Positions 6,501-54,348 are shown, numbered from the stretch's first letter. The stretch: DNA of 64,000 nt from Magnetovibrionaceae bacterium (GCA_049603795.1 JBMYSY010000015.1:47531-111530); one strand, 5' to 3'. Notes: a model not told the origin generated them from the letters alone. Translations and numbers: made by a program.

Positions 6501-9500
6501 GGCGGCTACCGCGATTACCTCTTCGGCTATGGCGGCAACGATGTCCTTGAAGGGTCCGATGTCACGCGGGATGAACTGCGTGGCGGCAGCGGAAATGACG
6601 TCCTGCGCGGTCGAAGCGGCGATGACCGCCTGCGCGGCGATGCCGGCAACGATACGCTGGACGGCGGTGCCGGTAACGACATGGTTCGCTATGACAGGGC
6701 GAGCGAAGGGGTCACGGTCGACCTGACGGTCCAGGGTGCCGGAAACGCGCAATCCATCAGTTCCGGCCAAGGCAACGATACGCTGATCGATATCGAAAGC
6801 ATCCGGGGGTCTGACTTCGCCGACACCCTGACCGGCAGCAGTGCGGCCAACACCATCGACGGTCGGGCCGGCAACGATGTGATCAACGGAGGTGCGGGCA
6901 ACGACGTTCTGATCGGCGGCAGCGGCACGGACCGGGCCATCTTCTCCGGCTCGATTGGGGCTTATTCAATTACCCATAGCGCCTCCAATCTCACGGTCAT
7001 TGGGCCGGACGGGACGGACGTCCTCCAAGACTTCGAACAGCTGACCTTCGATGAAGGCACCTATGACCTGCTGATCGGCTCTGCCGGCAACGACACCCTG
7101 GCTGCCGGGACCAATCCGGCGATCTTCTTTGACCTTGGTGGATCGGACAGTTTTACCGGCGGCTCAGGTGCCGACTGGATCGTCTATAGCACCTCGGCAA
7201 ATCTGGCCATTGACTTGGGCCAGGAACAGTCGGTCGCCGGATCGGATGTGGATGATCTTTCCGGCATTGAAAACGCCGTCGGGGGATCGGGCGACGATGT
7301 CTTCCGGGATGGCCTCGGCAACAACATCATGTCGGGTGGCGATGGTGCCGATACCTTCTTCGCTTTCACCGGCAATGACACGATCCTGGGTGGTAGTGGA
7401 ATTGATACGGTCGTCTTGTCGCCGACCGAAATCCTGACCAATGCCACACGCAGCGGCAACGATCTGGTTCTGACCTATCTCGATTACGCGGCGACGAGCT
7501 ATACGATAACGGTGCCCGGACAATATGGCCCCGGCGGCAACCTTGAAATCTGGCAAGACGTCGGAACCGATGGCTCCACGGATTACAACATTCTGGGCAG
7601 CCTGACAGGTGGATCGGGCGATGATCTTTTGGTCGGCACGGGAGGCGCAGATTCGATCACCGGCGGTGACGGCGCAGACATCATCTATGGTGGTGCAGGA
7701 GACGACAGCATTCTGGGCGGCGACGGTCTGGACTTCATTGATGGCGGGACCGGGACCAACAACCTGGATGGCGGATCCGGTATCGATATCCTGTCCTACC
7801 AAAACGCCTCGTCGGCCGTTTCGGTCAACCTGATCAGTGGAACGGCGGCCTCTTCGGACGGCAGCATTTCGGATACGGTCTCTAACTTCGAGGCCGTGTT
7901 TGCCTCGGACCATGCGGATACCCTCCTCGGCAGTACAGGCTCCGATATTCTCTATGGCGGAGCGGGCGACGACACCATCGCAGGCGGCGGCGGGGCGGAT
8001 TCCCTGGATGGCGGCGACGGCGACGATGTGCTGTTGTTCAGTGGCTCGGAGAACATTCACGGCGATGACGGCCAGGATACGGTAGAGGTCCTCTCAGGGG
8101 CCGATCTGGACCTGACCTCTGCAATCCTGTCGGAAATCGAGGCCATCCAACTGGCGGATGCCGCCTCCCAGACGGTTACACTGGACGCGGACAGCGTCTG
8201 GTATTCGGTCGATGAAAACAATGAGCTGATCATCAAGGGCGACGATTCCCATACGGTTCGGAATGTCGGGGACTCGTTCGGTCTGGCCGGTCTGGAAACC
8301 ATCGAAGGCCAGGACTATTCGGTCTATACGGGCGAATACAACGGCGAAACGGTCACGCTGAAGATCGATGATGATATTTCCCTCGAAGGTTTCTCGGCCG
8401 CGCCGGTGATTACCGATCCGGGAAGCAGCCTCAACCTGGACGGGGCGGACGATTACATTTCGCTTGGCGATCCCACAGCCACGGACCTGGAGCCGGCCGG
8501 AGACCCCTTTAGTGCCTCTGCCTGGTTCTACTTCGATCCGACCCAGACAGGGGACCGGGCCATTCTCTCTCTCGGCAATGATGAGAGCGCCACCGAGGGC
8601 TTTAGTGTTTTCCTGAGTGGTTCCGGAAGCAGCACGGAACTGGTTGTCCGGGTGAATACGGGCGGCGGTGTTCAGAGCCGGATGGCTGCCAGCCACATTG
8701 AGATGCCTAGCGAAGAAGGCTGGTATCATGTGGCCATGGTCATCGATGGCTCAAGCGCCAGCGGCGAAGACCAGTTGCTCGGTTACCTGAATGGGTCCAA
8801 CTCAGGCTGGGTGCCGGGATATGGGTCAATCTCCGAAGACCGCCTGACGATTACCAGCTCCGGGATCGAGGGCAACGGACGACAGTTGCTGATCGGTGCC
8901 AGGGACGCCGGAAATGATGGGATCGAGGATCATTTCACCGGTGCCATTGCGGATGTTCAGTTCTGGGACAAGACCCTCAGCGCCGAAGAGGTCATCGATG
9001 TCTTACACGGCAACGTGGACAATGCCGACGCCGATCTGCTGGCCCGCTACGACTTTGCCGACAGCGCCGATTTCGGTGCCGACATCGCGACCGCCAACGG
9101 GACCTTCAGCGGGGTGACAACCGGTCAACCGACCCAGGGGACCTTTGCCGAGCCGAACATCTTTGTGGAGGGACAAGGTGCCATCCGGCCGCTTACCGGC
9201 CTGGCGTTTTCCGATCCCGACAGCACCACCTTCGACGGTGGTCAGTTGGATGTGACGATGACCGGACGATCCGGTTCCGACTCCTTCATTCTCTACAACG
9301 GTAACGGCATCACTTTCGGTGCCAACGACGCCGTGCTCTACAACAATGTGACGTTCGGTACCCTGTCGAACTTCTTCCAGGGCCGGGTCACCCTTGACCT
9401 GAATGCCAATGCCGATATCGCTGCGGTCCGCGCCTTCGCCGGAAACATTGGCTTCAACAATTCGACCGAAACGCCGACAGCCGGTTTCCGGACCATTGGG

Positions 9501-12500
9501 ATCACCTTCGATGACGGTGATGGCGGTGTTCTGCAGGACTTCGAAAAGTCCATGTACGTCAGCCCGACAAACACGGCTCCGGAAATCCAGACCGGCATCG
9601 CGTCGAGCGAAGAAGAAGTCCTGATCGGTACCACCACCACCGAGGACCAGTCGCTGCCGGAAGCCGTTCAACTGGCCGATGGCAATGTCTTTGTGGTCTG
9701 GCGGAACGAACGGGATGGTTCGGGTGTCAACGATGTTGGCGGGATTTCGGGCAGCATCATCGATCCGGAAGGATCGACCGTCGTTTCCGAATTCCTGGTC
9801 AGCACCAGCCAGAATTTCTTGCAGTGGCGTCCGCAGGTAACCGAGTTGGCAAACGGCGACATTGCCGTCGTCTGGGTCAGCCGGCATTCAGGCGAAGACC
9901 TGATGGCGCGCATCTATCAGCCCAATGGCCAGCCGCGGACCAATGAACTGACGCTTTCCGACAATACGGTGGGTGATTCTGCCGGCGGAACGGGTATCCC
10001 ACAGATCCTGTCGCTGGATGGCGATGGTTTTGCTGCTGTCTGGATGACGGGCGGGGATATCAAATATCAGAAGTTCTCGGACCTCGGGGTTCCGGATGGC
10101 ACACCATCGACGGCCAATACGATCACCACGGGGACGCAGAACCGTCCCCATGCCGTGGCCCTCGATGGCGGAGGCTTCGTGGCCAGTTGGCTGGATGAGA
10201 ACCTCGGCATTCAGGTGCGCCGCTTCAATAACGACCTATCACCGGCGGATACGGTGGAGATCTCGGTCGATGCCGTGCCCAGCGGAAGCGAGGGCTATTC
10301 AGCGGTCGCGCCCGTCGCCGGCGGTGGATTTGTCGTGGCCTGGGTCGATGGCACCTCGGTCTATGCCCGCCTGTACAATGACGCTTCAGCGCCCCTCGGG
10401 TCCGAATTTGTGGTCGGAATCGCGACGGCGATCAGCGGACCGATTGATCTGGTAGCCGATCAGGACGGGAATTTCGTCGTCCACTGGCAGGACGTGACAG
10501 GCGGTGCCGACGCCAAGGAATCCATGTTGGCCCGCTTTACCAGCGATGGTGCCTTGCTGGGTGATGCCATCAGCATTGCGGAACATGCCGATGGCGATCA
10601 GGCCAATGCCAAGATCACGCCCCTGGATGACGGGCGGTTGTTCGTTGTCAGTGATACCGCGAGCACTGACGGCGGCTATGAATCGGTCGACGTTGTCTAT
10701 CGGATTTTCGATCCGGGTTTCTCAGGCACCTATGTCGAGGATGGCGCTCCCCTGCAGGTCGACCCTGGCTTCCTGGTAACGGATGTGGATTCGGGCGATT
10801 TCGAAGGCGGCTCCCTGACGGTTCAGGTCACCGAAGGCGACGACGGTGGCGATGTCCTGACCATTGCGGACGAGGGTAGCGGAACCGGGCAGATTGGCTA
10901 CCTGAGTTCGGCCGGGACGGTTTTCTATGAAGGAGACCTGATCGGGACGGTGACGGGCGGCGTGAACGGTCAGGCCCTGGCCATCTCCCTCAACGATGCG
11001 GCGACACCGGAGGCGGTCAGCGCTCTCGGTCGCGCAATTCTGTTCTCGAACGAGGCCTATGAGACGGGGAGCGACGACCGGACCATAACCTTTACCGTCA
11101 ACGACGGTCATGGCGGCCCGACGCCGAGCGCGACGATCTCCAAGGCGGTCCAGATTTCGCCCTCAAACGATGCGGCCACCCTGTTCGAGCCGCCGATTAC
11201 GCATAGCCTATCCCTTGATGGGGCCTCCTATATCGATCTCGGCGACCCCTATAACGACTCGTCGCGTGAACCCCTGTCGCCGGACAACGATCCCTACACG
11301 GTCGAGGCCTGGTTCTACTATCACCCGGACCACAGCGGGACGCGCTCCATCGTTTCCTGGGGCAGCCAGACCTATGATCAGGAAGGCTTCAACATCTTCC
11401 TGACGGATGCGGATTCTGATGGGGTCGATGAACTGGTCGTTCGCGCCCACACCTCGACCACCACGAGCCAGAGCCAGATCGGTGCCAGCCATATCGAAAT
11501 GCCCCAGGAGGAGGGCTGGTACCACGTCGCCATGGTGATCGACAGCGATAACGGCAATGCGGACGACACCATTATCGGCTACTTGGACGGGGACAGCAGC
11601 GGCTGGACCGCAGGCCATGACAGTGTCACCGACGATCAGATTGACCTGACATCGTCCGGCATTGATCCGAAAACGGGGGTGAGCGTTGCCATCGGTGCTT
11701 CGACCGACAGTGACGGCAATCCTGGCCAGTATTTCACCGGCGAGATCGGCGACGTGCGCTTCTGGCGCGAGGCGCGGACAAGGGACGAAATCGAAGACGG
11801 CATTCAAGACGGCGTGGCGAGCGATGCGGCCAACCTGGAAGCGCGATATCTGTTCAGCGCTCCGGAAGGACCGGAAGTGGATGCAACCGGGAATGTGCCG
11901 GATGGCCTTTCCGTCGGATCGCCCGGCGTTTTTGTTGGGCTGGGCATTCCCCTGTTCATCGAAGGTGGCTCTCCGGCGCGGGTCGGCAGCGAGGTCAAGG
12001 TTGATGACCCGGACAGCAGCGATTTTGCCGGTGGTACGCTCTCGGTTTCCATTACGGCCGGGGTAACAGGCGATACCCTGACCATCATCGATGGCGGCAC
12101 GGACGGCGTCCAGATTTCGGGCAGCAATGTTCTCTATCAGACCGCTTCGGTCGGCACGTTGGTCAGCACGGGAACGGATTCAACACCGCTTGAAATCACA
12201 TTGAACGCGAATGCCACGCCTTTGGTGGCCGAGGCGATTTTCGGTGCCATCGGCTTCGCGGCTGGTTCTGACGCGCCGGGTTCGAGCCGGGACCTGACTT
12301 TCTCGCTGACCGACAGCGCCGGCGGTGCGGCGGCGCAGTTGAACCAGACGGTCTATATCCAGGAACAGAACGACGCGCCGGTCATTGCGGGCAGCGATGG
12401 ATCGGCCTCGGATGAGGCCCGGGTCGGGACCAACTTCGCGGGCGATCAGACCCATGTCTCCGCGGCTGAACTGCCGGACGGCAACGTCTTCATGGTCTGG

Positions 12501-15500
12501 GCGCAGCCGGATGACACGACCACGGCCAACGACCACATCGTCTCGATGATCATCAACCCGGCGACGGGGGAGGTGATCCAGCCGGAAACCAAGGTTTCGA
12601 TTATCGGCGATCAGTTCGGATACAAGACTCCGCAGGCTTTGGTTCTGGCCGACGGAAATGTCGCGGTCGCTGCCACAGGCAGCTCTTCCAACTACAACCA
12701 GATCGTCGTCTATGATCCGGAAAATCCGTCACCGCCCCTGCTGGGCGCAACGGCAATCGGCACCAACCCGAACCTCGGCAACGAGGACCGGGCACCGAAG
12801 ATGGTGCAACTGGCCGATGGCGATATCATCGCCGTGGGGTCCGATGGTTCGACCATCAGCGCCTATCGCATCAATGAGAATGCCGGGACCTATGCCGGCG
12901 GTTCGCCTTTCTCGGCCGCCATCAGCGAGAGCACAGGCGGGTCTCGGCTCTATGCTGATGTTGCGGCTCTGAGCGACGGCGGCTTTGTGGTCTCCTGGCA
13001 CGACAGCTCCAACGGGGTCATGGTCAGGCGGTTTGACGCCGACTTCACGGAACGGGATGCGAATGACGTCGCCGTGCTGGCCTCGCCTTCCGGGACGGAA
13101 GACTACACGTCGGTGCTCGGCTTGGACGATGGCGGCTTCGTGGTCGCCTGGGCGGACGATACGGGCGTCTTTGCGCAGCGATACGACAACCTGTCCCAAG
13201 AGGTCGGCAGTGTTATGTCGGTGGCGTCGGCTTCGGTCGATGCGCCGATCAACCTGAGCGCGCGGGCTGCCGGTGGCTTCTACGTCACCTGGAATGATAC
13301 AGAAGCGGAAGGGGCCGGCGATGGGGCCGCCTATCTTCGCATGTACGACGAAAATGGCGGCTCGGTTGGGATCGCGATCAAGCTTGCTCAGTCGGTCGAT
13401 GGTGATCAGACCTATCCGACGGCCTTGGAGCTGTCCAACGGGAACCTGTTCTCAGCCTTTTCCAGCGAAAGTTCAACCGAGGGCTACAACGGTCTGGATG
13501 TCGCTTGGCGAACCTTCACCGGCTTCTACGTGGAAGACGGGGCACCGAAGCAGATCGATCCGGCCTTTAGCGTTTCGGATGTGGATTCGACCGATTTTGA
13601 TGGCGGTTACCTGGACGTCACGGTCACCAGCAATGGAGAGTCCACCGATCTGCTCACGGTCGCCAACATCGGGACCGGCACAGGCCAGATTAGTCTCAGC
13701 GGGACGGATGTCAGCTACGAAGGCACCCTCATCGGTTCGATTTCCGGCCAAGGTGAAGGGCAGACCCTTTCCATTGATCTGAACGCCAATGCCGATGCCG
13801 AGGCCTTGTCGGCCCTGGGCCGCGCGATCCGGTTCGAGACCACTTCCGATACGCCGGACATCAATGTCCGAACAATCCGTTTCGAGGTGGACGATGGCGA
13901 TGGTGGTGCCACGGCGACGGCGACCCACGACGTAAGCCTCAGCCTTCTGGCGGCGAACGATGCGCCGACGGTAGAGATCGAAAGCGGTGTGGATGACGCG
14001 CTTCGGATCGACAACACAAACGACTACCTGATTGTCTCCCCCGACGACACATCTGCACTGTCCAGCGCTTTCACGGTCGAGGGCTGGTTCAAATTCGAAG
14101 ATGGCAACCTGTCCCAGGAGTACGCGCCTCTCGTCTTCTCGGGCTATGCCTCCTATTCCGGCTCGCTGGAAGGCCTGCACGTCACAATCGGTAGCGGCGG
14201 TGTGGTCAACGCCAAGGTCGGTGACTTCTCCAACGGTTATGACGAGGTAACCGGCTCAACAGCCGTCAATGATGGGTCCTTCCACCACGTGGCCGTCACC
14301 TTCGACGGGACGAACCTGAAGGTCATTATCGACGGCGTTGAAGACGCGAGTTCGGACGTTTCCCCGATCGAACCGGCCTTCGACTACGACATCCGGGTTG
14401 GTTACGACGAGGTCGAGACACCGGACCTTAGCGTCGATACGACCTTCTGGGACGGCGATGTTTATGGCGTCCGGGTCTGGAGCCAGGCACAGTCCGCGAC
14501 GGACATCGCCGCCGACATGAATCGCACCCTGGATGGGAATGAAACCGGGTTGCTGGTGGATCTTCCACTCGACGGGGATCTGACCGACAACACAGGCAAT
14601 ACCGATACGGCTCTCGTCTATAACAGCACGGGCTCCATCTCGGGCAGCTTCGTCAGCCAAGGTGCGGTTTCCACAACCATTGCCTATACCGAAGGAACGC
14701 CTGAGGTCGTGGGGACCAACATTACGGTCTCCGATCCGGACTCGGCCAACTTCAACGGTGGTCAGATCATCGCCGAAATCACAGCGGGTGGTGATTCCTC
14801 CGATACCATCTACATCGGTTCATCCGGTCTCGTAACCGCGTCCGGCGGCTCGGTGTACTTCGATTCCGCGCCCGTTGGCACCTATACCGGGGGCGGTGCC
14901 AAAGATGACCCTCTTGTTGTCACCTTCAATGCCATTGCCGATGCGACGGTTGTCCAGGGGGTGGCCCAGGCGCTGACCTTCGACAATACGTCGGGCGCAC
15001 CTGTTACCACCGACCGGACCTTCTCGATCTTTGTCAGCGATGGTGATGGTGGGACCTCTGTCGAGGCCACGCGGACGATTGAGGTTTCGGTTATCAACAG
15101 CGACCCGGTCGTGACCATCAACGGCGCAACGGAAACCTATACCGAGGGCGGTACGGCCATTCTGGTCGATGAAACGATCACGGTCAGCGATAGCGACAAC
15201 GCCAATCTCGACGGCGGATCGCTCTCGGCCTCGATCACCGTTAACGGTCGGCCAGGCGATGCGCTGGCGATTAAGAACATCGGCACCGGCACCGGAGAAA
15301 TTTCCGTATCCGGTAGCGCGGTCTCCTACCAGGGCGTTCAGATCGGGACCTTTGCCGGGGGTACGATCAGTTATGATGCCACGCCTATTGTCGAGACTTT
15401 TGAGGATGGGATCAGCGACTGGCGTCTGACCCAAGACGGTGAGAACGCAGCCCACGTATTGACAGGCGGTTCCGACAACTCGACCTACTTGAGGGGCGAA

Positions 15501-18500
15501 GACGGAGCCGTATCGGGCTGGTTCAAGTTCGGCAACGATACCCTGTTCAATGGTGATCGCTCGGATTTCTATGGCGGCGAACTGTCCTTCCAACTGAAAG
15601 ACAACCAGATTGCAGACTCGGGCACAGATGACTCGGACGTCATTATTCAAGGCAACGGAACAAGTATCCGTATCTCCCTGGACGGCCAACCGGGCAGCGA
15701 TTGGACGGACTTCACGGTTGACCTGAATGATGCCGCAGGCGGGTCCGGTTGGCGCCTAGGATCCTCAACCGGGCCGTTGGCCACAGAGGCTGAGATCCGC
15801 GGGGTTCTTGGCGATATTACGGATATCGAAATCCGGGGCGAGTTCTCCTTTACGAGCAGCGATGTCGCCGGGCTCGATAACGTAGCTTTGACCCCACCGG
15901 TTACGGCGACCCCGCTTACCGTGTCGTTGGATGCGGATGCGACGCCCGAGGCTGTTCAGGCTCTAGCCCAGGCTCTGACCTTTGTCGCCTCCGGTGACAA
16001 TCCGTCCGAATTGGACAGGACCGTCGAAATCACGGTCAACGACGGCCTGGGCGGGACCGGTTCCGCGACAAAGACGGTCAGCGTCGCTGCCGTGAACGAC
16101 GATCCGGTTGCCGCCGGTGATCTGGTTTCCACAGGCGAAGACACCGCCATCACCTTCAACGTCATCCTGAATGATACGGACGTTGATGATCCCGACCTGC
16201 TGACCGTTTCCTCTGTCGGCTCTGCCACCTATGGCACCGTGACGATTGAGTCCAACGGGAAAGAAGTGACGTTCACGCCGGGCAGTGCGGCGGACGCCCT
16301 GACGGCGGGACAGGTTGTCGAAGACACCTTTACCTACGTGGTCACCGACCCCCATGGAGCCACGGATACGGCGACGGCGACGGTGACGCTCACCGGTACA
16401 AATGACGAGCCCTTGGTAACGGCCAGCAGTGGCTCGGTGGCCCATTCGGAAGACGGAGGTGCGACTGTCGTCGATGGATCGCTGACGTTGAGCGATCCGG
16501 ACAGCGCCAACTTCGACGGGGGCAGTCTGACGGTAAGGGTTACCGGCAATGCGAACGTCGGCGATACGCTGACCGTCAAGAATATCGGTACCAATACCGG
16601 CGAAATCGGCTTTGACGGGACCGCCGTCACCTACGGCGGGACGACCATCGGCACGGTGTCCGGCGGCGAGGTGAGGGCCGAAGTTATCCGCTCAACTTTC
16701 GAGACGGGGACCGAGGGCTGGACCGCCGTCAACAATCACAGCAATTTCGGCCAGACCTCCACGGGTGGTGTTGATGGATCGGGCGGCATTCGCGCGACCG
16801 ATCAGGGTGGCGACAATTTCTACTTCGTGACTCCCACAGCCTATGGCGGCAACCGCTCCGCTTACTACGGGGGCACGTTGTCCTTCGATATGCGGGTCAG
16901 CAGCGCCAACAGTTCGTCGGCAAGCGGTCCTTATCTGCAGGTCGTCGGTGCCAGCCAGACGCTTTTCTTAAGCGGTCTCGACCTGCCCGGAACCAACTTT
17001 ACCTCGATCGAAGCGGTCTTGGATACCAGTGCGGATTGGCGGGTCGGATCCCAGTCAGGTTCGGTCGCCACCGAAGCCGAGATCAGGGCGGTTCTTTCCG
17101 ATCTTCAGGAAATCCAAATCCGGGGCGATCATACCGGTGTCTTTGAAACCACGACTTTGGACAATGTCGAACTGGCCCCGGCAAGTGCCCTTGAGATTTC
17201 TCTGAACAGCAACGCCACGCCGGAAGCGGTCGAGGCTTTGGCCCAGGTCATCACCTTTGAGGCCGACAACAACAGCCCCGATACCGGTGACCGGACCGTC
17301 AGCTTCACGGTGAGCGATGGTGACGGTGCCACCTCTACAGCCAGCCGGACGGTGACGGTAGCGGCGACCGACGATGCGGCCAAACTCGGGCTTTCGGGCC
17401 AAGGCATTGATCTGGCGGGTGGGGATACGCTTTCCAGCAGCGACGCCAGCCTGCAGCCCGGTGTCGCGGCCTTCTCCGCCGAGGTCTGGTTCGATTGGAA
17501 CTCGGCTGACGCGACCGGAAGCCCGCGGATCATCATGGGCAAGGGTGCCGAAGCGGCAGGCGACACCGGCTGGTCCGTCTTCCTGGATGGCACGACGGGC
17601 AACGAGACGCTGACCGTCCGTCTGCGGGGAGCCAACAACACCACGGCGATAGAGCGAACCATTGCGCTCGACGGCAACGCGGACGAAGGGTTCAACCACC
17701 TGGCCTTTGCCGTCGATCCGGAATTCGGGACCCTGACGACCTGGTTGAATGCCGATGACGACAACTGGACCGGTCCGATCGACCTGACCGAGGGCGGTAC
17801 GGTCACCAGTGCGACCAATTCGATCACCAGTTCGGATGACTTTATCGTTGGCGACGGCACCTCGGGCGGGGCGTCTTTCGGTAGCCGCCTGGACGACATT
17901 CGGGTCTGGGATCGGGCCCTGTCTGCGGCAAATGTCGAAGACAACATTACCGGTTCGACGATCTCCAATGCGGATGAAAGCCTCGTCGCCCGCTACACCT
18001 TTGAAGACGATCAGGCCTTTGGTGACAATGCCTCCTCGAACGGCGCATCACTGGACCTTGCGCTCTCCGGCACCGCAGCGGCGGTCGACTTCGATCAGGC
18101 AACCACTTTCGAGGGCGGCGGCGGTGCCGTCCGGATCGACCCCGATCTGGTCTATGGCGATGTGGATTCCGAGCCCGCCAGCGGGGCGACCGTTACGGTC
18201 AGCTTCACCAGCGGGTCCGAGACTGCGGACAGCCTGGGCATCCTGAATTCGACCGATGGCAAGCTGACGGCTTCCGGCGGCGGCATCACTTTCGATAGCA
18301 CACCGGTCGGGACCTACACAGGCGGCACGGACGGTTCGACCCCCTTGGTTATTACCTATAATTCGGCCGTGACCGAAGAGGCGATCCGGGCGACGCTTCG
18401 GAACCTGTCGTTCAACAATTCGGCGGGTGATCCGGACAATACTGACCGCGTTGTCAGCATTCAGGTCCAGGATGCCAACGGCACGACGAATTCGATCTCC

Positions 18501-21500
18501 CGGACCCTCTCTGTCGTGGATGCCAATGTGGCACCGGAAGCGGGGCTCTTGGCCACCGGTTCCGCCTTCCAGTTCGACGGGACGCAAGACAACCTGCGTT
18601 TCGATACCCAGACCGAATTCAATCCGGCCAAGGGCGATTTGACAGTCGAACTCTGGTTCGAATGGGACGGCACCACCAACGACACCCAGATCCTGTTCCA
18701 TAAATGGAACGGCAGCGGCGGGTATATCGGCAAGATCGAAAACGGTGTCCTGCAGCTCTATGCCGATACCAAGGGCACGGGGGCTGTCGATGCCGAACTC
18801 GCCATGCAGCGGATCGATCTTTCCGGAAATGGCGTATCTGCGGGGTGGCACCATGTCGCCATGGTCATCGACGGCGATGGTACGACAGGCACCGTCACGG
18901 GCTACCTTGATGGCAGCAACGCCAACTGGACCAACGGTGACGGCGGTTCGGTGACCAGCAATACCCTGACCTATGATGCCGATGGCATCACCCAGGGTGC
19001 GCCGCTCTGGGTCGGTTCCGATACCGTTTACAACTACAGCTTCAATGGCGGGATGGATGAAATCCGCGTCTGGACCGAAGCGCGGACGGCCGCTCAGATA
19101 GCAGAAGGCGTCAACACCGTCGTTGATAACCCGACGGGGGAGACGACGCTGGCGGGTTACTGGCGGGCGGCGAATGCCACGGACACCTCGGTTGTCGATA
19201 GCTCGGGCAATAATCACCACGGCACCTATACCAACGACGCGCATGTGGTGGGCCACCTCGGCACCGCCTGGCAGGGGACGACCGCCAACTCAGGGATCGA
19301 GGTGGCGGCACCCTCAACATTCAGCAACTCGAGCAATTTCTCGGTTGAAGGCTGGGTCCGGCTGGACAAGGACGCCACCGGCATTCAGACCGTCGTTTCC
19401 CAATGGGGCACGGCGGATGCCTATGCTGATGACCGGAGTTTCCAACTGTTCCTGACAGACGGAGACGTCGGCGATGGCGACTTCAACCTGACGGCCAGCA
19501 TGAGCCCGAACGGCGACCTCACCGATAACTGGAATGTGGTGGGCACCAAGTCCATCACAGCCGGCCAATGGCACCATGTGGCCATGACCTATGACGGCTC
19601 CATGCTTCAGCTGTATGTCGACGGCGAGACGGATACCGCGGTCACCAATGCAGCCGGTAGGAATTTGGGTTCAACAACACCGGTGGGCATCGGTGTGCGG
19701 CACAACAGTCCGACCAGCCCGGAGTATCCCCTGGATGGCCAGTTGTCCGATGTTCGGATCTGGACGGTGGCCCGTGATGCCGCAGGTATTCAGAACGGAA
19801 TGGACGGCTCCGTCTCGCATGAGACCACCGGGCTCGAGGGCTATTGGCCCCTGAACGAGGGCACGGGCACGACGGCGCAGGATGTGACCGGTAACGGCAA
19901 CGACGGTACCCTGTCTTCAGCCGATACCTGGGTGAATACGGCCCCCGCTATTTATTCGGATCTGGCCGAAGGAAGCACCTTCGAAGATCAGGCGATCTCG
20001 GGCGTTATCGGTCGTTTCGATGCGGATGGCGATACGGTTGCCGTCACGCTGGAAACCGATGCGGCCAACGGCACGGTGACGATCAACGAAAGCAACGGTG
20101 TCTACTCCTACGTCTACACGCCGGATGCCGACTTCGATGCCACGGATAGCTTCCAGGTTCGTCTGAATGACGGCAGCGGTGCCTCCAACGCGGAGGTGGT
20201 GAAGACCTTCACGGTCAATGTGGAGGGAACCCAGGATGTCCCGGTCGCCAATCTGACCGACCAGGTGGCCCAGGAAGATACCGACCTCGTGATACAGCTT
20301 TCGGCCGAGGACCCGGATACGGGCGACAGCCACAGCTACACGATTACGGCCCTCCCCACCACCGGCGGCAGGCTCTATCAATACGATGGCAACGCCACCG
20401 ATGATCGGGGGGCCGAGATCGTCGAACCCAACATTCTGGTCGCGGATTCCGCCGGGCGCATCATTTTCGTACCGGATGCGGACTTCGCGGGGACCGGTCC
20501 GTCCTTTGCCTATACGGCCAATGACGGCACGGATACCTCGCCGGCCAAGACGGTCAACATCACGGTCACCAATGACAATGATCAGCCGGGCTTCGCAGGG
20601 GTATCGGCGGGATTTGAATCCTTCCAGTTCGATGGTTCGGGTGCCGGCCTTTCGGTGGCTTCGGATGCGTCCTTGAGCCCGGGAACCGGAGACCTGACGG
20701 TCGAAACCTGGTTCTATTGGGATGGCTCGCCGCCGAGCGGAACATCCTATGCCCTGTTTGAAGCGAGGCCGGGTTCGGGCGGCAACGGCGCCTACATCGC
20801 CAACATCCATGAGTCCGGATTGTTGATGACAACGGTGCGGACGGGTTCAAACAACTCGGAGAATGATACCGCCGTTCAGCGCATCGACATCAGCGGCCTG
20901 GAACACGGTTGGCACCATTACGCGATGGTGCTCGATGGCGATGGCATTTCCTCTGGCACCGTGACCAGTTACTTGGATGGCGAGACCACCGGGTGGCTGA
21001 ACGGGGATGGCGCAACCATCACGGATAATGTCTATGGCTTTACGGGCAACGGTGGAAGCCTGGACTTGAATGATCCATTGCGGATCGGTCATTGGAACTC
21101 CGGTTCCACCGCTCATTTGAAGGGGCAGATGGCCGAAATCCGCATCTGGGAGTCCGCCAAGAGCCAGGACGCGATCCAGCAGGGCATGTTCGAGGCCGTG
21201 GATGATCCGGCAAACAATGCCGATCTGGCACTTTATTTGCGCCCAGACCAGGCCACCGTGTCCGGCGTTACGGACCTTTCGCCCAAAGGGAACGACGCGG
21301 CGAATGTGGGCGATGGCCCGCAGGTTTTGCACCACCTCGGCAATGCGGTCGAGCTTCCGGGTTCGGGTGAGTCCATTCGGGTGACGGCAACGGAAGAGCT
21401 TTCCGGCATGGATGCCCTGACGTTGGAGACCTGGGTCAAGCTGGATAGCGTCACGGGCAATCAGGCGATCTTCACGACCAGCGAACCGGGAACCGCCTGG

Positions 21501-24500
21501 TCCCATCAACTGACCACGAACGGCAGCGAATTGAGTTTCCTGGTCAGCAGCGATGGCAGTTCGGCTGATCTTGCTGACCTTCAGACCTCCGGATTGGGGC
21601 TGGAAACAGGCATCTGGTACCACGTCGCCGCCACCTGGGACGGCTCGACCTCGACGATCTATGTCAACGGCACGGTCGCGGGCACGAACAGCGCGACCTC
21701 GGGCACGGTAAAGACGGGCGCAACGGATCTTGCCATCGGCTCCAGCATCGATACCAACGGTGACGCGACGATCACGTTGGATGGCCAGTTGGCCGAGGCC
21801 CGGATCTGGGGCGTGGCACGCACGCAGCTTCAAGTTCAAAGCAGTGTCGATGGTGACGACATCTCCGCCAACGCGCCGAACCTGCTCGGGTTCTGGCCCA
21901 TGGAGGAAGGTGCCGGTACGACCGTCCATGATGTGACGGGCAACGGCCTGGACGGAACCTTGCCGAGTGCCACTGTCTGGGCGGACACCAGCGTCCCGCA
22001 GTTCTCCACCAGCGAGACGATTGACCTGTTCGAGGATTCCTCGACAACCGGCCGCCTGAAGGTTTTCGATGCGGATGCCGGGGACACCCTGACCGTCACG
22101 GTCGATACCGATGCCACCAACGGCTCGGTCACGGTCTTCCAGGATGGCGGCGAATGGAAGTTCACCTATACGCCCACGGCCAACTACGCCGGTTCGGATA
22201 GCTTCACCCTGCAGGTGGACGACGGTACGGGCGAGTCAAACGCAACGAAGACGCAGACCTTCACGGTCGAGGTCGAAGCGGTCAATGACACACCAGTAGC
22301 CGAGGTGACCAGCGGCTTGCAGATGCAGAAGGGCACCCAGCTGGTGCTTGATCTGGAAGCGACCAACCCAGAGACCGAGACGGTGGCCTTCACCATCGAG
22401 GCCCTTCCGTCCAACGGTGCGCTCTATCAATACGACGACGGTGCCGCCGACAAGCGGGGAGCGGTTATTCAATCCTCCGGCACGGCTGTGACCGATGTTG
22501 ATGGGCGGATTGTTTTCGTGCCGGATTCGACCTTCGAAGGCACGGGTCCTTCGATCCAGTTTTCTGCCACCGATGCGCAGGGGGCAAAGTCGGATACGGT
22601 GACCCAGGCGATCGAAGTGCTGGGGTATTCGGAGACGATCCATAACCAGAACACCGACCTGACCTGGGAGGAGTCTGCAAACTGGACTGCCGGTCTGCCC
22701 GGCGTGGCAAGCAAGGCGACCTTGACCGGTTCCGGTACAGTGACGCTGAACGCCGACGTCTCGATCGCCGAGTTGGATGCCGATACGAACCTTGACCTCA
22801 AGTCCAACACCCTGACCGTATCGGCGCTTGGCGACATAGCAGCCGGCAAAACTCTGAAGCTGGAAGGCGGCAATCTGGCCGGCGATCACAACATGACCGT
22901 CAACGGCACCTTGTCCTTCCAGTCCGGGACCCTGAGTGGCCTTGGAACCACAACGGTCGAAGGTGGATTCCAACTGTCCGGTTTGACGGCGGACAAGACG
23001 TTGGACGACCGGACCATCGCTCTTGGCTCCGGGGTTACGGCCACGATCAAGAACGCCACATTGCTGGGCGACGGTGAATTGACCAGCGCCGGTACCCTGA
23101 CCCTGCAACGGACGGTCAGCCTGGATCCGGCCTTCGCCAACTCGGGCAGCATCGCCATCCAGGCGATTTCGGGTGTGTCTGCGGTCATGAATCTTGATGG
23201 CGGTCTGACCAACACCGGCACGATTACGATGGACAGCATCGCGACTGCGGAAACCAGGGACGTTGGGATCAACGTTTCCTCGGCGGCAGATGGTTTCGTG
23301 AACGATACCGGCGGCACGCTCCAGGTTCTGGGAACGGTTGCTGCCGGTATCCGCTACGTCACAGGGTCTGTTACCAACAACGGCACCTTCGATATCGACC
23401 ACGCCTTTACGGTCAATAACGCCAGCGAGACCTTCGATACCCGGGACGGGGACATTGATGTCGCCTCCGGCAAGAACATGACCATCAATGCCGGGACGAC
23501 GATTTTCGGGACGGATACCGATCTTTCCGGCACCGGTAGACTGACACTTTCCGGCACCCATGCGCTGCAATTGGCCGAAGACTTCACCTTTACTTCCGAT
23601 ACGCTGGAAATGCGCTTCGGCAACGTATCGGTCAGCGGCCCGGGCAAGCTGATCAACGACGGGACCTTCACCTTTGAAAACGGGTCTCTGAGTTTCGCGA
23701 CCGAAATCTTGAACAACCAGGACGCCAGGCTTGAAGTCATTTCCATCAACGGCACGGAACTGACGCTGAACACCTCGTCGGATATCACGACCAACGGTCT
23801 CTTGGTCATGGATAACCAGGCGACAGGTGAAACGCGCAGCCAGTCCCTAAACCTGACAGGTTCTTCTAAGCTGGTGATCGGATCGACGGGCGAGCTGCAG
23901 GTGGACGGGACGGTCGCGACCGGTTTCCGGACCATAACGGGGTCGGTTCAGAACCTCGGCCTGATCGACGCCAACTACAGGCTTGATGTGGCGAACAGCG
24001 GCGAGGTCTTTGATAGCCAATCAGGCACGATCGACATCGCCAGCGGCGTGGTCATGGATATCGACGCCGGGACGACACAGTTCGGCACAGGGACAACGGT
24101 CCAGGGGGCCGGTCGTCTGACGTTGGGCGGTACTCATGAGCTCGACCTGGTCAGCGACTTCACCTGGGATTCCACCGAGACAGACATTTCCTTTGGAAAC
24201 GTGACGGTGACGGGGCCGGGCTCCCTCCTGGTCGATGGCGATCTCACCTATTCCTTTGGATCGCTGAGTTTCGAGACCCCGATCGTTGTCGGGGACACGG
24301 GAACACTAAATGTCTTCGGCGCGAATGGGGCGGATCCGGTTCTCAATACGTCGGCCAACATTACGGTCAATGGTGACTTGGTCCTGGACAATATCCAGGT
24401 GGGCCAGACGCGGTCTTCCTCGATCAATGTCACCGGGGCATCTGAACTGGTCATCGGCCCGACGGGCGAACTGATCGTGAAGAGCACGAACGCGGGCTCC

Positions 24501-27500
24501 CGCGCGCTTACCGGCTCCGTCGATAACGACGGCGTTATCGACGTCCAAGGGGCCTTCGTTATCAACAACGACGGGGAAGTTCTGGACAGCCGGGACGGCA
24601 AGATCACCATCGCCAGCGGCACCAGCCTGACCATCGATGACGGCACGCTTCAGTTGGGTTCCGGTGCAGAGTTGACTGGCGAAGGGACTTTGGCGTTCAC
24701 AGGTATCAACACCATCGATCTGGTCAGCGATTACACCCACGACGCCGATGATCTGACCACAACCTTCGGGACGACAACCGTCTCTACCGAGGGTTCGGCC
24801 CGGTTCATCAACATCGGTGACATGAGCTATTCCCACGGCAACCTGGATTTTGACGCATCGCTGCGCAACACGGGGCAGTTCACGGTGGCAGGCGGCAACG
24901 GGGCGGACCCGAACCTGCGGGCCTCGGCGGATATCGAAAACCAGGGCACCTTCATCCTGGATAACCAGCAGGTCGGCCAGACCCGGTCGGCGACCGTTAC
25001 CCTTGAGGGCGGTGCCGAATTCCTGAACCAGACCGGCGCGACCCTTTTGGTTCAGGGGACGGTGGCCAGCGGCTTCCGGACCTTGGTCGGTGATATCACC
25101 AACGCGGGCACGATAGACGTCGATTACGGTTTCGGCGTCACCAACACCGGCGCGACGCTGAACAACCAGGCGGGCGTGATCGATGTTGCCGAAAGCCGCA
25201 GCATGACCATCACCGGCGGCACCCTGGAATTGGGTTCGGCGGGGACCCTGACCGGTAAGGGTACGCTCGCGTTCTCCGGTTTGACGACCGTTGACTTGGT
25301 CACCGATTACACCCATCGGGCTACGGATCTGGACCTGACCTTCGGGACCACGACTGTCCAAGGTTCCGGCACCTTCATCAACGCCGGGGAGCTCGATTTC
25401 ACCTATGGCAATCTGGATTTTGATACGGGCCTCCAGAACGAAGGGGTCTTCGGGGTCATCGGTGGAAACGGTGCCGATCCCGTCCTGACGACCTCGGCCA
25501 CCATTCAGAACCAGGGCGTCTTCATCCTGGACAACCGCCAAGCGGGCCAAACCCGCTCGGCCGCCGTGTCGCTTGAAGGTTCGGCCATCTTCAACAACCA
25601 GTCCGGTGCCACGCTGCGCGTTGACGGAACGGTCGCCAGCGGATTCCGCACCCTGACCGGTCCGGTTACCAATGCCGGCGTCATCGATGTGAACTACGGC
25701 CTGACGGTCAACAACGCCTCGGCGACCTTGAACAACCAAAGCGGTACGATCGATATCGCCAGCGGCAAGACCCTGACCGTTGACCAGGGCACCCTGCAAC
25801 TGGGGACCGGCAGTACGCTGCAAGGTGAAGGGACGCTGTACCTGAGTGGCGCAAATACCGTCGATCTGGTTTCCGACTACACGCATACCGCAGCCGACCT
25901 GGCCTTCACCTTCGGCACCACCACGGTCTCGGGTGCCGGCAATTTCATAAACGACGGAACCCTGAACTTCAGCTTCGGCAACCTGGATTTCGATACCACC
26001 TTGCAAAACACCGGTACCTTTACGGTCACCGGCAACAATGGGGCCGACCCGGTCTTGACGGCTTCGGTTGATATCGAAAACAGCGGCCTGATTGTCCTGG
26101 ACAATGTTATCCCGGGTCAGCTCCGCTCGGCGGGTATCACCATGGAGGGCTCTTCGGTCCTGGTGAACCAGGCCGGCGGTATACTCCGGTCGTCCGGCAC
26201 CATCGCCAATGGCAGCCGGACGATCACCGGTAGCGTCGAGAACCTGGGCACCATTGACGTGGACTATGCCCTGTCCTTCGCGAACACCGGCGAAACCTTT
26301 GATACCCGCGCCGGCTCCATCGACCTGGCAGCCACCATGACGGTGACGGGCGGCACGGTGCAGTTTGGGTCCAGCACCGAATTGACAGGCAACGGCATTC
26401 TCAACCTCGCGGGGACGACGACGCTGGAATTGGTCAGCGACTACACCCACGCCACGGACGGGGTGGACCTGAACTTCGGTGGGAACGTCACCGTTTCCGG
26501 GGCCGGTGCCTTCAATAATACCGGTGACCTGCGCCTCGATACGCTGAACGATGTCTTCAATGTGGATTTCAACAACTCTGGTGAATTGGTCATCACAGGG
26601 GCCACGAACACATCCGCTTCGATCACCTTCAACAATGACCTGACCAATACCGGGACCCTGGTCCTGGATAACCAAGCGAGTGGTCAGACCCAGGGTGCTG
26701 CGGTGACCATGGGCAGCGGTGCAACCCTGGTGAACGAGGCGGCGGGGACGATCCGCATCGACCGGACCGTGAACACGGGCACCCGGATCATTCATGGCGA
26801 TGTCAGCAATGCCGGCCTGATCGACGTCAACGACGGGACGCGGATCGGAACGACCGGAGACACCTTCACGAACACGGGGATTATCGATATCGCAGCAGGC
26901 GAGGCGCTGCTCATCGAAGCCGATACCTTCGTCAACTCAGGCACCATTCAGGGCGAAGGCACCCTCATTGTTACGTCTTCGTCGGTCAGCAATACCGGCA
27001 CCATCATTGTCGCCACCGACGGGACCACCGGTGCGCTGGACTATCAGGATGACTATACCTCCAGCGCCAGCAGCACCATTACCCTGGACGTCCATTCCGC
27101 GACCGATCGGGATCTTCTGACCGTCGATAACCTGGATCTCTCGGCGGTCGGTGACACGCTGGAACTCAATCTGGCAGGCGTGAAGATCGGCGACAGCTTC
27201 ACGGTCATGAACTACGACAGCGTCACCGGGACCTTTGACAGCATCGTCCATAACCTGCCCACGGGTTACACGCTGACGCCGACCTATGGCGCAAACAGCC
27301 TGAGCTTCGTCGTTGGGGCTTCGGCGTCGACGACCACCATGAACCAAGCCGTCGACAGTGCCTGGAACAACTCCGGCAACTGGACCAATGGCCTGCCGGA
27401 TGCCAACACCATCGCCATCCTGGATGCCAATGCGAGCGACGTTGTCTTCCCGTCCGGCACCATCACCGTGCTGGGGCTCGAGGCCAATACAGGGCTCAGC

Positions 27501-30500
27501 CTCAACGGCGGGGATCTGATCATTCAGGGCCCGGGTTCGGTTGCGTCCGGCCAGACCTTCACGGTCGATAACGGCGATCTCACCATCAATGGCGACTTTG
27601 TCGCCAATGGTCCCCTCAGTTTCTTCGATGGCACCATCGGCGGCACGGGCAAGTTGATCGCGAAGACCGGCGGTACCCTTGGCGGCGACTTGACCAACTT
27701 CGCGTTGACGACGACTTTGCAGAACGAAGGGACCTTCACCTTCCCGGGCGGAAGTGGCGATTTCCTGATCTCGGGCAGCGGTGTTCTGGACAACCGCAGT
27801 GGCTCGACCCTCAATTTCACCGGCAATCAGGATATCACCTGGTCCGGGTCGGCGGGCAGCATTCTCAACGATGGTGCGGTGACGTCGAGTTCGACTCTGG
27901 CTGTGATCGATGTGCCCTTCCTGCAATCGGATGATGGGACGCTGACGGTTTCCGATGGCACCTTCCGCCTGAATGAACCGGGCTCCGTGCTCCGCGGGAC
28001 GGCGGATACCGGGGCTTCGGGCTATCTGGAAATCAACGCGGCGACGACCCTGGAAGACGGTTTCCTGCTGAACAGCGGCAATATCGTGCACGACGCCGGG
28101 GTGGCCACGGTCAAGGACATCACCATCGGGGCCTCGGCAGCCTTCCAGTTGGACAGCGGCGACATATCGGTTGCCAGCGGCAAAACCATGGAGGTGGATG
28201 GCACCCTGCAATGGCTCACCGGTGATCTGCTGGATGGTGGTGGCGTCCTGCGCATTGATGGCGAGTTGGATCTGCAGAGCACGGCGGCCAATCGCTTCAT
28301 CTATGGCACGCTCGAGAACAACGGCTCGGCAGAGGTGCTGGGGACCGGCGATCTCTACATTCAGCCGACCGGGGTGATCCGGAACAACGCCGGCGGGACC
28401 TTCACCTTCCTCAGCGACGCCGATACGAGTTTTTCCTCGTCCGCCGGCGAATTTATCAACGCGGGGACCCTGGCAAAGGCGACTGCCACGGGCGCGACCT
28501 ATTTCTATACAAAGCTGACCCAAACGGATCTCGGGACCGTCGATGTTGATAGCGGCCAGATTCGCTTCCTTGTCGACAGCCCGTCCGTTGGCGGAACCTT
28601 CGATGCGGCCAGCGGGGCCGAAATCGAGATTGCTTCGACCATGACCTTCGAGGAAGGCGTGACCTTCCAGGGCTCTGGCGTGACCGAAATCCTATCAGGC
28701 GGGGAGGCTGTCTTTAGCGGCAATGCGGAAGTTGCCTCGGGCGGGACCTTGCAACTGTCCGGTAACGGTCCGCTGACGGTCAATGCCGGCAAGACGCTGG
28801 AAGTCGATGGAACGCTGAATTGGACGACAGGGACCATTGATGGTGCCGGTACGATCCGGATTGATGGAACGGCCCAGGTCAGCAGCAGTGCCAACAAGTT
28901 CCTGGAAGGCGATATCGTCAACACCGGCACGATCACACACACGGGTGCCGGAGATATCTATGTCCAGAGCGGCGCTTCCCTGACGAACGCCATCGGCGGG
29001 ACGTTCAATCTGCAAGGCTCGGGCGAGCTGGCCTATTCGTCAGCACCGGGTGAATTCGTCAATGCCGGGACGATCCATAAAAGCGTGGATACCGGCAGCC
29101 GGAATTTCTATTCGGAATTGACGCAGACCGAGACCGGCTTGGTCGATGTGGATACCGGGTCGCTGTCCTTCCTGGTCGCCAGCGATTCAGTCGCGGGGAC
29201 CTTTGATGCGGCCAGTGGTGCCAGCATTAATTTCGGTGCCACGATGACCCTGAAGGCTGGAACCACCTTCCAAGGGGCCGGTACCCATTCGATCTCGTCC
29301 AGCGGCAAGCTGATCATCGACGGCAGCGTATCGGTGGCGACGGGCGGTACGATGTTGGTCGGCGGCGGCGAGGTTCAGGCCAATGCCGGAGAAACCCTGG
29401 ATATTGACGGTACACTGGAGTGGACTTGGGGCGGATTTTCCGGGGATGGTCTTGTTCGGGTCAATGGTGACGGCGAGCTCTCGTCCGCTTCGAACAAGTC
29501 GCTGCTGGGGACCCTGGAAAACCACGGTTCACTGGCCTTCACAGATACCGGAGATTTATACCTTCAGGCCGGTTCCGTCTTCAGGAATGCCGAAAACGGG
29601 CTGTTTGATATCCAAACGGATTCAGACATCACCTACGGTGCCGCCCCCGGTGATTTCGAAAACCACGGGGTTGTCCGAAAATCTTCCGGCTCTGCGACCA
29701 CCGATTTCGACACGACCTATACTCAGTCCGTCGGGGCAACGCTGGATGTGGATAGCGGCACCATTCAGCTGTTCGGAACCGGCAACACCCTGGCCGGTGT
29801 TGTGGATGCAGCATCCGGTGCTTCTCTCATGGTCAGTGGCAACACGACAGTCCTGGCCAAGACGGTGTTCCAGGGGGCCGGCACCACAGAAGTCGCTCAT
29901 TATACGACCAGCGTTTCCGGCGACGCCTCTGTTGCATCCGATCATACGTTCAATGTCTCGGGCGGTACCCTTACCATTGCGGACGGCATAACCCTGGATG
30001 TGGATGGCTCACTGGATTGGGACGGCGGAACCATCGCAGGCGACGGTGTGGTCATCCTTGATGGCGACGCGACCTTTGCCGGGAATGCCAACCGGACCCT
30101 GACCGGGACGATTGTCAACAACGGTTCGGTCACCATGACCGATGCGGGCGATATCTTTATCGAGACCGCTGGGATCTTCCAGAACGCGCTCGGCGCGACC
30201 TTTGAAGTCCAGGGTTCGGGTGATCTCTCGAATACGACTTCCGCGGGCAGCTTCCAAAACGCCGGCACCTTCATTCGCAACGGCGGCGTTGGGACCATGA
30301 ACCTGGATGTCCTGGCATCCAGCAGCGGCGAGATTCAGGTGCTGACCGGGAATCTTCGCTTTTCCGAGGGGCTGACCAACTCCGGTCGGATCGAGATCGC
30401 TGATGGCGCGACCCTGACCGTATCCGGCGGCAACTTCTCCAACACCGGCATCATCGAAGGGGCGGGGACGTTGAACGTCACCACCTCAGGAACGGTTGCA

Positions 30501-50473: not shown

Positions 50474-51616
50474 ATGGCGAAAGCAAGTACCACAGCGACC
50501 GCGAAAGCGCGCAAATCCCCCACCAAAAAGCCGCGGAAACGCTCGGCAAAGGCTGAACCCGCGCCTGCGCCATCTGGCGAATTTCAGATTTATGCCTCGC
50601 CACACTTTGCGGGCTGGCTGCACGAACAGAACGTTAGCCTCGGCTTCACGACCTATCAGGCCGGTAAGTTATTTCTGATCGGACTGAAAGAAACCGGTCA
50701 GATCTCGGTGGAGGAACGTTCCGTTGACCGCTGCATGGGCATCGCGGCCCATGACAACGCGCTCTATGTTTCGAGCGACTATCAGATTTGGCGGTTCGAG
50801 AATGCGCTCCTTCCGGGCCAGACGGTGGATGGCTATGATCGTGTCTACCTGCCCAAGACCAGCCATGTCACCGGCGCGATTGACGTACACGAGATGGACC
50901 TGGACGGCGAAGGCTATCTCGTTTTCGTCAATACCAAGTTCTCTTGCATCTCGACTTTGAATGACCGCTATAGCTTCGAGCCCATCTGGTGGCCGCCCTT
51001 TATCTCAAAGCTGGCTCCGGAAGACCGTTGTCATATGAACGGCATGGCGCTGGTTGATGGCCAACCCTCCTATGTTACGGCCGTCGCTGCCACGGATACG
51101 CCGGAAGGGTGGCGGGAAAGACGCACTGATGGCGGCGTGGTGATCGATGCCTTCGAAAACGAGACGGTCCTGGGCGGGCTCTCCATGCCGCACAGCCCCC
51201 GCTGGCACCGCAATGGGCTCTGGCTGTTGGAATCGGGTACCGGTTGGTTTGGCCGCGCTGACCTGGACGCGGGCGAGTTCGAAGAAATCACTTTCTGTCC
51301 GGGCTATGCGCGCGGCATGGCAATGTATCGGAACTATGCCGTTGTCTGCGTCTCGCAGCCCAGGGACGAGGCGACCTTTGGCGGCCTTCCCCTCGATGAC
51401 AATCTTGAGCGGGCAAAACTGAAAGCGGCCTGCGGCATTCTGGTGATCGACATCGAGCGGGGCGAGATCGTCCACTGGCTTCGGCTAGACGGCCCCATCC
51501 AGGAACTCTTCGATATTGCACTGATGCCTGGCGCAACGCGCCCGCGAGCCGTGGGCTTCAAGGGCGACGAGATCAAGTATGCCGTCTCCCTGCCGCCGAC
51601 GGTGGATGGCGGCTGA
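50474..51616 (+). CDS. TIGR03032 / DUF4915-family protein of unknown function, with a Lys/Arg-rich N-terminal tail
   Basis: A 380-aa ORF begins 29 nt after the giant gene's stop. Motifs I recognise from this family: F.GWL.E..VSLGFTTYQAGKLFLIG, YQIWRFENAL, FVNT.FSC, PPFISKLAPEDRCHMNGMA, LSMPHSPRW..G.LWLL.SGTG, FCPGY.RG. The N-terminus MAKASTTATAKARKSPTKKPRKRSAKAEP is strongly basic. Confidence 0.8.
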   Translation: MAKASTTATAKARKSPTKKPRKRSAKAEPAPAPSGEFQIYASPHFAGWLHEQNVSLGFTTYQAGKLFLIGLKETGQISVEERSVDRCMGIAAHDNALYVSSDYQIWRFENALLPGQTVDGYDRVYLPKTSHVTGAIDVHEMDLDGEGYLVFVNTKFSCISTLNDRYSFEPIWWPPFISKLAPEDRCHMNGMALVDGQPSYVTAVAATDTPEGWRERRTDGGVVIDAFENETVLGGLSMPHSPRWHRNGLWLLESGTGWFGRADLDAGEFEEITFCPGYARGMAMYRNYAVVCVSQPRDEATFGGLPLDDNLERAKLKAACGILVIDIERGEIVHWLRLDGPIQELFDIALMPGATRPRAVGFKGDEIKYAVSLPPTVDGG

Positions 51617-51756
51617 AGAAAAAGGTCTCTTCTAAGAGACGATTATGGTCAATCTGATAGTCGTTGCTAGGCGAAATTAAACCTAGACAGTTTTCCTTTC
51701 ATTTCCCAAGTCTAGGAAAATCCCTAAAAATTAAGTAGGCGGAACATACTCCTGAC
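51617..51756 (+). promoter_or_regulatory. AT-rich intergenic region upstream of the chemoreceptor gene: probable promoter, a 7-bp inverted repeat, and a weak hairpin after the preceding gene
   Basis: The local composition is clearly more AT-rich than the flanking DNA. An inverted repeat CCTAGAC (51682-51688) / GTCTAGG (51710-51716) is separated by 21 nt. A short hairpin GTCTCT-tcta-AGAGAC lies at 51625-51640, just after the TIGR03032 stop, with no T-tract. No confident -35/-10 assignment was possible. Confidence 0.4.
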
Positions 51757-54345: not shown

Positions 54346-54348
54346 GAA

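Follow-up and report, generated by a model that had tools for sequence, protein, structure and literature searches.

Domain IV of laminin and perlecan (L4; Laminin_B in Pfam) is known from animals as a guest within a rod-forming protein: laminin L4b is inserted in LE14, one of the disulphide-rich laminin EGF-like (LE) modules, without disturbing it, and lies peripherally on a continuous LE rod (PMC6744579). A second group of nested domains has been described in bacterial repeats-in-toxin (RTX) adhesins, where ligand-binding domains bud out of split immunoglobulin (Ig)-like extender domains, with adjacent termini and a binding site off the fibre axis. Carbohydrate-binding modules (CBMs) are the commonest of these budding domains, with 20-56% identity within one protein (PMC12077191, bioRxiv 10.1101/2025.09.30.679566, PMC10865825). 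The literature retrieved with laminin-IV and laminin-B domain terms concerns animals only, and prokaryotic L4, which is annotated by Pfam, appears undiscussed there; the word 'laminin' is absent from the RTX-adhesin literature searched for it. Here we analysed a 64,000-nt stretch of DNA (the window) from a metagenome-assembled genome (MAG) labelled Magnetovibrionaceae bacterium (Alphaproteobacteria, Rhodospirillales; GCA_049603795.1, JBMYSY010000015.1:47531-111530). A single uninterrupted open reading frame (ORF) spans positions 27-50444 of its plus strand and encodes a giant protein of 16,805 residues, in which two L4 domains each interrupt a host module of ~160 residues.

Identity and position of the two inserts

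Both inserts are Cys-free and ~170 residues long. A first-pass annotation of the window had likened them to Laminin_B from signature motifs, and the laminin-type motifs that it quoted (FYFVTPTAYGGNRSAYYGGTLSF, TEAEIRAVLSDLQEIQIRG and LDNVEL) are present in the translation. Pfam Laminin_B (PF00052) matched insert 1 with 48.3 bits (E 1.2e-12) and insert 2 with 49.5 bits (E 5.2e-13); chance similarity is excluded because these scores exceed the gathering score of 22.4. No competing Pfam family was found on the inserts even at E ≤ 10, bar one noise match. A profile built from three sequences, namely the two inserts and the homologue P0001 (profile A1), was compared with the Protein Data Bank (PDB) using hmmsearch and retrieved perlecan region 3 (9i5b, E 3.6e-9) and laminin α2 L4b (4yep, E 4.2e-4), with nothing else at E ≤ 1.

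The fold was predicted with AlphaFold2 for insert 2 from a 19-sequence alignment, giving a predicted local distance difference test (pLDDT) score of 93.4 and a predicted template-modelling (pTM) score of 0.90. When this model was searched against PDB with Foldseek, perlecan L4 ranked first (E 1.3e-8, TM 0.71-0.72) and laminin α2 L4b next (2.5e-7), these two accounting for the top six matches (9i5a/b and 4yeq/4yep). CBM11 (3e-5), a CBM6-like agarase module and CBM22 followed, at E 3e-5 to 1e-3 and TM ~0.6. Comparison with laminin L4 structures, which the first-pass annotation had proposed as a check, thus placed L4 ahead of the CBMs, and neither a missing Laminin_B match nor a better fit to a CBM was observed. 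None of the top 50 Foldseek matches of the model is named as a sugar- or ligand-binding domain of an RTX adhesin. According to the model, the insert fold is L4, inside the sugar-binding β-sandwich class. Solved L4 has likewise been described as a deviant β-sandwich of the sugar-binding class in a CASP11 commentary, and shows the same order of structural neighbours as insert 2 (PMC4834066). Together, the Pfam match, the PDB profile match and the fold confirm that the inserts are true homologues of laminin/perlecan domain IV. The Pfam model spans only the C-terminal ~120 residues of the ~165-residue structural domain, starting at about residue 50. A conserved bacterial N-terminal strand, STF(D/E)xxxEGW, falls outside it (insert residues 1-50; 15372-15520 and 16671-16820), and L4 boundaries derived from Pfam would therefore be too short.

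The positions of the inserts were determined with a hidden Markov model (HMM) of the host module (A5), which was trained exclusively on copies without an insert (five taken from the window, twelve out of metagenome loci). Applied to the giant protein, this model recognised eight host modules, of which six are full-length and two are split (Table 1). Both split modules are broken at one loop, between HMM positions 88 and 91 in module A and 90 and 92 in module B. In a MAFFT alignment of seven module copies found by regular expression ('D.DS..F.GG'), the inserts come after ..GT(F/V)(A/S)GG and before L(T/E)(V/I)SL(D/N), and the receiving loop measures 5-7 residues in the uninterrupted copies. This reproduces the earlier description, in which a shared loop is interrupted in two of eight modules, and the insert coordinates given there agree with the L4 HMM envelopes to within 9 nt. 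Each guest interrupts a β-sandwich domain of extender type that is completed after it, as judged from the two host HMM halves, with the host halves themselves modelled at low confidence: in a composite model of host and L4, the L4 part exceeded pLDDT 90 and the host halves reached 45-60. Nesting in a 5-7-residue hairpin loop, together with the nesting of animal L4 in LE14, would place the two termini of the guest next to each other. A scan of the ORF with the L4 HMM detected no further L4 copy in the giant protein, and the guanine-cytosine (GC) content is flat across the inserts (0.59-0.63).

Neither Pfam nor NCBIfam offers a model of the host module, and PDB contains no significant relative; the best match of profile A5 there was a protocadherin at a non-significant E of 0.13. 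Pfam searches of 17 host members gave no consistent assignment (Cadherin-like in one member and Cadherin_4 in one), and cadherin family models and structures gave nothing significant. The term cadherin-like refers here to a resemblance at the level of motifs (YxE, DxDS, DGDGG and NDxP). The host consensus reads ..Y.E....V...TV.DPDSANFDGG.L.V....G...D.L.I...G...GQI..SG..V.Y.GV.IGT.SGG.....L.ITLNA.AT.AAV.AL.R.ITF.N.S..P....RT..F...DGDGG.S. In metagenomes the same module is common, repeated without interruption in long tandem arrays every ~155 residues (including loci L059-L071), and it appears to represent a cadherin-like family of extenders that has yet to be described. In 150 representatives, 57 loci from genomes, 28 from metagenomes and 11 word-index matches, a limited sampling that was not designed as exhaustive, no other L4 nested in a host module was found; in all these other sequences L4 is terminal, in tandem or in series, as in the giant proteins P0065, P0080 and P0094, where it follows LamG.

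Table 1. Host modules, inserts and neighbouring domains of the giant protein, with window positions (nt) and residues (aa)
Feature	Window position	Strand	Evidence
Uninterrupted host module (aa 3034-3190)	9126..9596	+	Host HMM
Uninterrupted host module (aa 3560-3719)	10704..11183	+	Host HMM
Uninterrupted host module (aa 3966-4123)	11922..12395	+	Host HMM
Uninterrupted host module (aa 4492-4653)	13500..13985	+	Host HMM
Uninterrupted host module (aa 4877-5032), abuts split module A directly	14655..15122	+	Host HMM
N-terminal half of split host module A (aa 5033-5113; HMM 8-88)	15123..15365	+	Host HMM
L4/Laminin_B-like insert 1 (aa 5116-5289)	15372..15893	+	Pfam, L4 HMM envelope, alignments
C-terminal half of split host module A (aa 5294-5363; HMM 91-161)	15906..16115	+	Host HMM
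Big_9/cadherin-like domain between the two composite modules (aa 5357-5454)	16095..16388	+	Pfam
N-terminal half of split host module B (aa 5462-5550; HMM 2-90)	16410..16676	+	Host HMM
L4/Laminin_B-like insert 2 (aa 5549-5717)	16671..17177	+	Pfam, L4 HMM envelope, model pLDDT 93.4
C-terminal half of split host module B (aa 5720-5788; HMM 92-161)	17184..17390	+	Host HMM
LamG_3 domain in series after composite module B (aa 5798-5970)	17418..17936	+	Pfam
Uninterrupted host module (aa 6023-6171)	18093..18539	+	Host HMM
Last RTX nonapeptide block, ~115-130 aa short of the C-terminus	49941..50045	+	HemolysinCabind match

Prokaryotic distribution of L4 and relation between the inserts

We searched profile A1 exhaustively against 1.84 billion cluster representatives (50% identity clusters) using hmmsearch. 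This search yielded 4,056 matches at E ≤ 1e-3, of which 2,436 remained at E ≤ 1e-10 and 395 at E ≤ 1e-30. Solved animal L4 domains score ~39 bits against the profile, which by scaling corresponds to E ~4e-5 in that library, and the 2,436 stronger matches therefore resemble the bacterial type more closely than animal L4 does. The first-pass annotation had regarded a metazoan basement-membrane-type domain as unusual in a bacterium; that view does not hold, given 4,056 prokaryotic clusters from many phyla. Each of the 80 matches scanned with Pfam passed Laminin_B, and RTX repeats are present as well in 22 of these proteins. The word-index homologue search was too insensitive for assessing distribution (one match for a single insert, five for the 19-sequence alignment and 11 for the composite module).

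A scan of species-representative genomes identified 57 loci with L4, the best at 43% identity in Rhodobacterales, and others in Methyloversatilis, many Phycisphaerales, Cyclobacteriaceae, Epilithonimonas, Armatimonadota, Chloroflexota, Scalindua, Opitutia, Kiritimatiellales and two haloarchaea. Overall, the family occurs in Pseudomonadota, Planctomycetota, Bacteroidota, Chloroflexota, Armatimonadota and Verrucomicrobiota as well as in haloarchaea. The haloarchaeal L4-like domains were seen in two records, a Haloarculaceae MAG (L020 3001-3510) and a Haloferacaceae plasmid (L021 3001-3501), and so the family is not limited to bacteria and animals. Many members are small stand-alone secreted or anchored proteins of 200-300 residues, and the best-scoring proteins show PEP-CTERM tails, lipoprotein signals, type IX secretion system (T9SS) sorting domains, GC-dockerin-like tails or HEAT repeats. 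P0001 and P0093 carry HEAT repeats N-terminal to L4 and lack an obvious signal peptide; such repeats are a curious companion for a domain whose other contexts look extracellular. Among the best 150 of the 4,056 matches, two L4 copies are present in 99, one in 30, three in 16 and four in 5. Tandem pairs occur in P0007, P0153, the loci L001-L006 and ~100 other representatives, often with RTX repeats after them. The first and second copies of such pairs form separate clades in a neighbour-joining (NJ) tree, which implies that the tandem pair is old and conserved.

The two inserts share 33-45% identity with bacterial L4 domains and ~12-16% with animal L4 in structural alignment. Because of this difference, they are assigned to the prokaryotic branch of L4 and are not a recent animal import. 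They are 35% identical to each other, and each ranks only ~88th-101st in the BLAST list of the other among 352 bacterial L4 domains; they were recovered as sisters in 2 of 100 NJ bootstrap replicates, a method that cannot decide on such long branches. The split hosts A and B, on the other hand, are each other's closest paralogues, with 53% identity vs 27-47% to the other modules, and this closeness suggests one insertion followed by duplication. The mismatch between inserts and hosts could possibly reflect fast divergence of a binding domain, independent insertions in a permissive loop, or cassette exchange. L4 cassettes could also be swapped in and out of this loop, changing the specificity of the adhesin.

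The giant protein and the possible role of the inserts

The features of the giant protein outside the composite modules were surveyed with Pfam, which assigned RTX nonapeptide repeats, more than 20 LamG_3 domains, Big_9/cadherin-like domains, He_PIG and Ig_SibA, with FG-GAP repeats close to the C-terminus. The RTX repeats lie in four separate blocks (residues ~1873-2662, 8289-8479, 11495-11961 and 16657-16690, the last with HemolysinCabind matches at ~16639-16690), and 46 GGxGxD motifs were counted. The last block stands at the place expected for the type I secretion signal region. The protein resembles the RTX-adhesin carriers in its RTX repeats, C-terminal β-roll and secretion-signal region. 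The protein contains a single Cys in its 16,805 residues, and its N-terminus is an Ala/Glu-rich low-complexity region without a signal peptide. In the light of what is established for RTX proteins, this combination of features fits a type I secretion substrate, and the ORF product is probably one.

Its mosaic of blocks departs from the canonical RTX-adhesin layout of retention module, extender, ligand-binding region and β-roll. Residues ~7600-11400 (window ~22800-34200) are nearly devoid of Pfam matches across several thousand residues and contain Gly/Thr/Asn-rich repeats, for example around residues 9200 and 10800, that resemble β-helix or haemagglutinin-type repeats. The Logan assembly of SRR27204692 also carries the C-terminal third of the gene together with its downstream neighbours. 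A chimeric assembly was considered and rejected in view of the flat GC content, the continuous ORF and the bacterial type of the insert sequences. The 13.5 kb downstream of the ORF encode DUF4915/TIGR03032, a double-CHASE3 chemoreceptor (methyl-accepting chemotaxis protein, MCP), CheW, a histidine kinase and two isocitrate dehydrogenases. Directly after the giant gene, at 50474-54855, stand the gene of the TIGR03032/DUF4915 family, the chemoreceptor with its two CHASE3 domains and CheW.

By analogy with the RTX adhesins, we consider it fairly probable that the inserts, bacterial-type L4 domains nested in rod modules, act as binding modules displayed laterally, with a glycan or some other surface polymer as the probable target. 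Each L4 enters the same loop of a ~160-residue host module that is completed after the insert. Because of this completion, the rod would stay continuous with L4 projecting sideways, and L4, as a binding module displayed in this way, would add adhesion specificities to the fibre. Of the added unit envisaged in the first-pass annotation, the ligand-binding idea fits the split-domain logic of RTX adhesins, and a force-sensing function found no support. Several points count against laterally displayed binding modules. We infer ligand binding, and the chemistry of the ligand, by analogy; animal L4 is described as a domain of unknown function (PMC6744579), and no L4 ligand is known. The sideways projection would follow from the topology of the sequence and is not seen in the model. 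No glycoside hydrolase partner was found in the 80 scanned homologues, whose partners are RTX repeats, dockerin, PKD and peptidases. The composite modules occupy residues 5033-5788 of 16,805, one third along the protein, and do not lie in a distal ligand-binding region beside the C-terminal β-roll, whereas those of RTX adhesins are located in the C-terminal ligand-binding region. In addition, no retention module was recognised at the N-terminus, and type I secretion genes are absent from the 13.5 kb downstream of the ORF, the window holding only 26 nt upstream of it.

Some of these points would fit a purely structural role, in which the inserts bind no ligand but serve to bend or stiffen the rod, to set its spacing or to cover the host module. 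A kink at the L4 position has been reported for the short arm of laminin γ1, and no function has been assigned to animal L4 (PMC6744579); the inserts, moreover, sit mid-fibre and not at the tip, and the scanned homologues include no enzyme partner that would indicate a substrate. We nevertheless regard this role as unlikely: the fold class of the inserts is that of sugar-binding modules, architecture alone makes little sense for a family that very often consists of small stand-alone secreted or anchored proteins, and domains budding from split domains in RTX adhesins have repeatedly proved to be ligand binders. Protein-protein contacts, either in self-association of the fibre or in docking to a matrix or S-layer component, seem similarly improbable. 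Going by a title cited in the CASP11 commentary (PMC4834066), those who solved the L4 structure compared it with ephrin-receptor and other glycoprotein adhesion modules; the frequent tandem homologue pairs with copies in separate clades would fit paired binding surfaces, and some homologues are fused to HEAT repeats. The nearest structural neighbours after L4, however, are CBMs with bound oligosaccharides.

Two further explanations concern the origin and the identity of the inserts, and both can be set aside. A recent horizontal transfer of a metazoan basement-membrane domain into the bacterium is effectively refuted: the family name and a significant match to an HMM named after animal proteins are all that would favour it, and against these stand thousands of prokaryotic homologues across many phyla and in haloarchaea, the higher identity to bacterial than to animal L4, the absence of Cys and the flat GC content. 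That the similarity arose by chance, or that the inserts represent an unrelated CBM or jelly-roll family, could be argued only from the low pairwise identity to animal L4, and is refuted by the independent agreement of the Pfam, PDB profile and Foldseek tests on L4. Laterally displayed L4 binding modules of bacterial type remain the reading that we prefer.

Comparison with known systems

With this locus, L4/Laminin_B joins the domains known to bud from split modules of giant RTX proteins, and the locus indicates that a ~160-residue cadherin-like module without a Pfam model can serve as the split host. It also draws attention to a prokaryotic L4 family of thousands of clusters that databases have tagged automatically. 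A tractable bacterial homologue would make it inexpensive to look by experiment for the class of ligand that animal L4, a domain without an assigned function, might bind. A more far-reaching idea, to which we give little credence at present, is that prokaryotic L4 is an older and functionally informative relative of animal L4, and that a capacity for nested, sideways-projecting insertion in rod modules was inherited with the fold. If this were true, the ligand of a bacterial L4 would reveal the role of L4 in laminin and perlecan (function unknown, PMC6744579).

Animal laminin/perlecan L4 (4YEP/4YEQ, 9I5A/9I5B) is homologous to the inserts by profile and fold, and shares with them the motifs (F/Y)xGxxSxxYGGxLxF, ATxxxxxxVLxxLxxLxIRG and LDxVxL. 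It is likewise nested in a rod-forming module and lies beside a continuous rod. The animal host, however, is the disulphide-rich, EGF-like LE module, whereas the host of the inserts is a Cys-free bacterial module of cadherin-like appearance; no LE or EGF match was obtained with Pfam in the giant protein, so that the inserts do not lie inside LE modules of a basement-membrane protein, a difference that concerns context only and not membership of the domain family. The inserts further differ from animal L4 in the absence of Cys, in the low identity given above and in the N-terminal STF(D/E)xxxEGW strand of the prokaryotic branch. Closer in sequence are the bacterial Laminin_B proteins, which comprise small proteins with PEP-CTERM, lipoprotein or T9SS features, proteins with two L4 domains and RTX repeats (P0007, P0153) and the Rhodobacterales loci L001-L006. 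They belong to the same family at the bacterial level of identity; unlike the inserts, the L4 domains of those examined are never nested in a host module. CBM11, CBM22 and CBM6-like modules share the β-sandwich fold class with the inserts; they rank under the L4 structures, and CBM families have no Pfam or sequence-level match to the inserts.

In architecture, the closest parallels are the RTX adhesins MpIBP, FrhA and AhLap studied by the Davies laboratory. As in the giant protein, a β-sandwich of the binding type emerges from a loop in a second β-sandwich, of the extender type, within a giant Ca2+-dependent RTX protein, and the divergence seen among such budding domains matches the identity between the two inserts. 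The budding domain is of L4 type in the giant protein and a PA14/CBM, a peptide-binding domain or vWFA in the RTX adhesins. The hosts differ as well: those of RTX adhesins are bacterial Ig-like (BIg) extenders in which the break follows the first strand or precedes the last two, whereas the cadherin-like host of the giant protein includes a helix and is cut near its middle (HMM ~90 of 165). Each ingredient was thus already known separately, and the contribution of the locus, modest in itself, is to add L4 to the display of domains from split modules.

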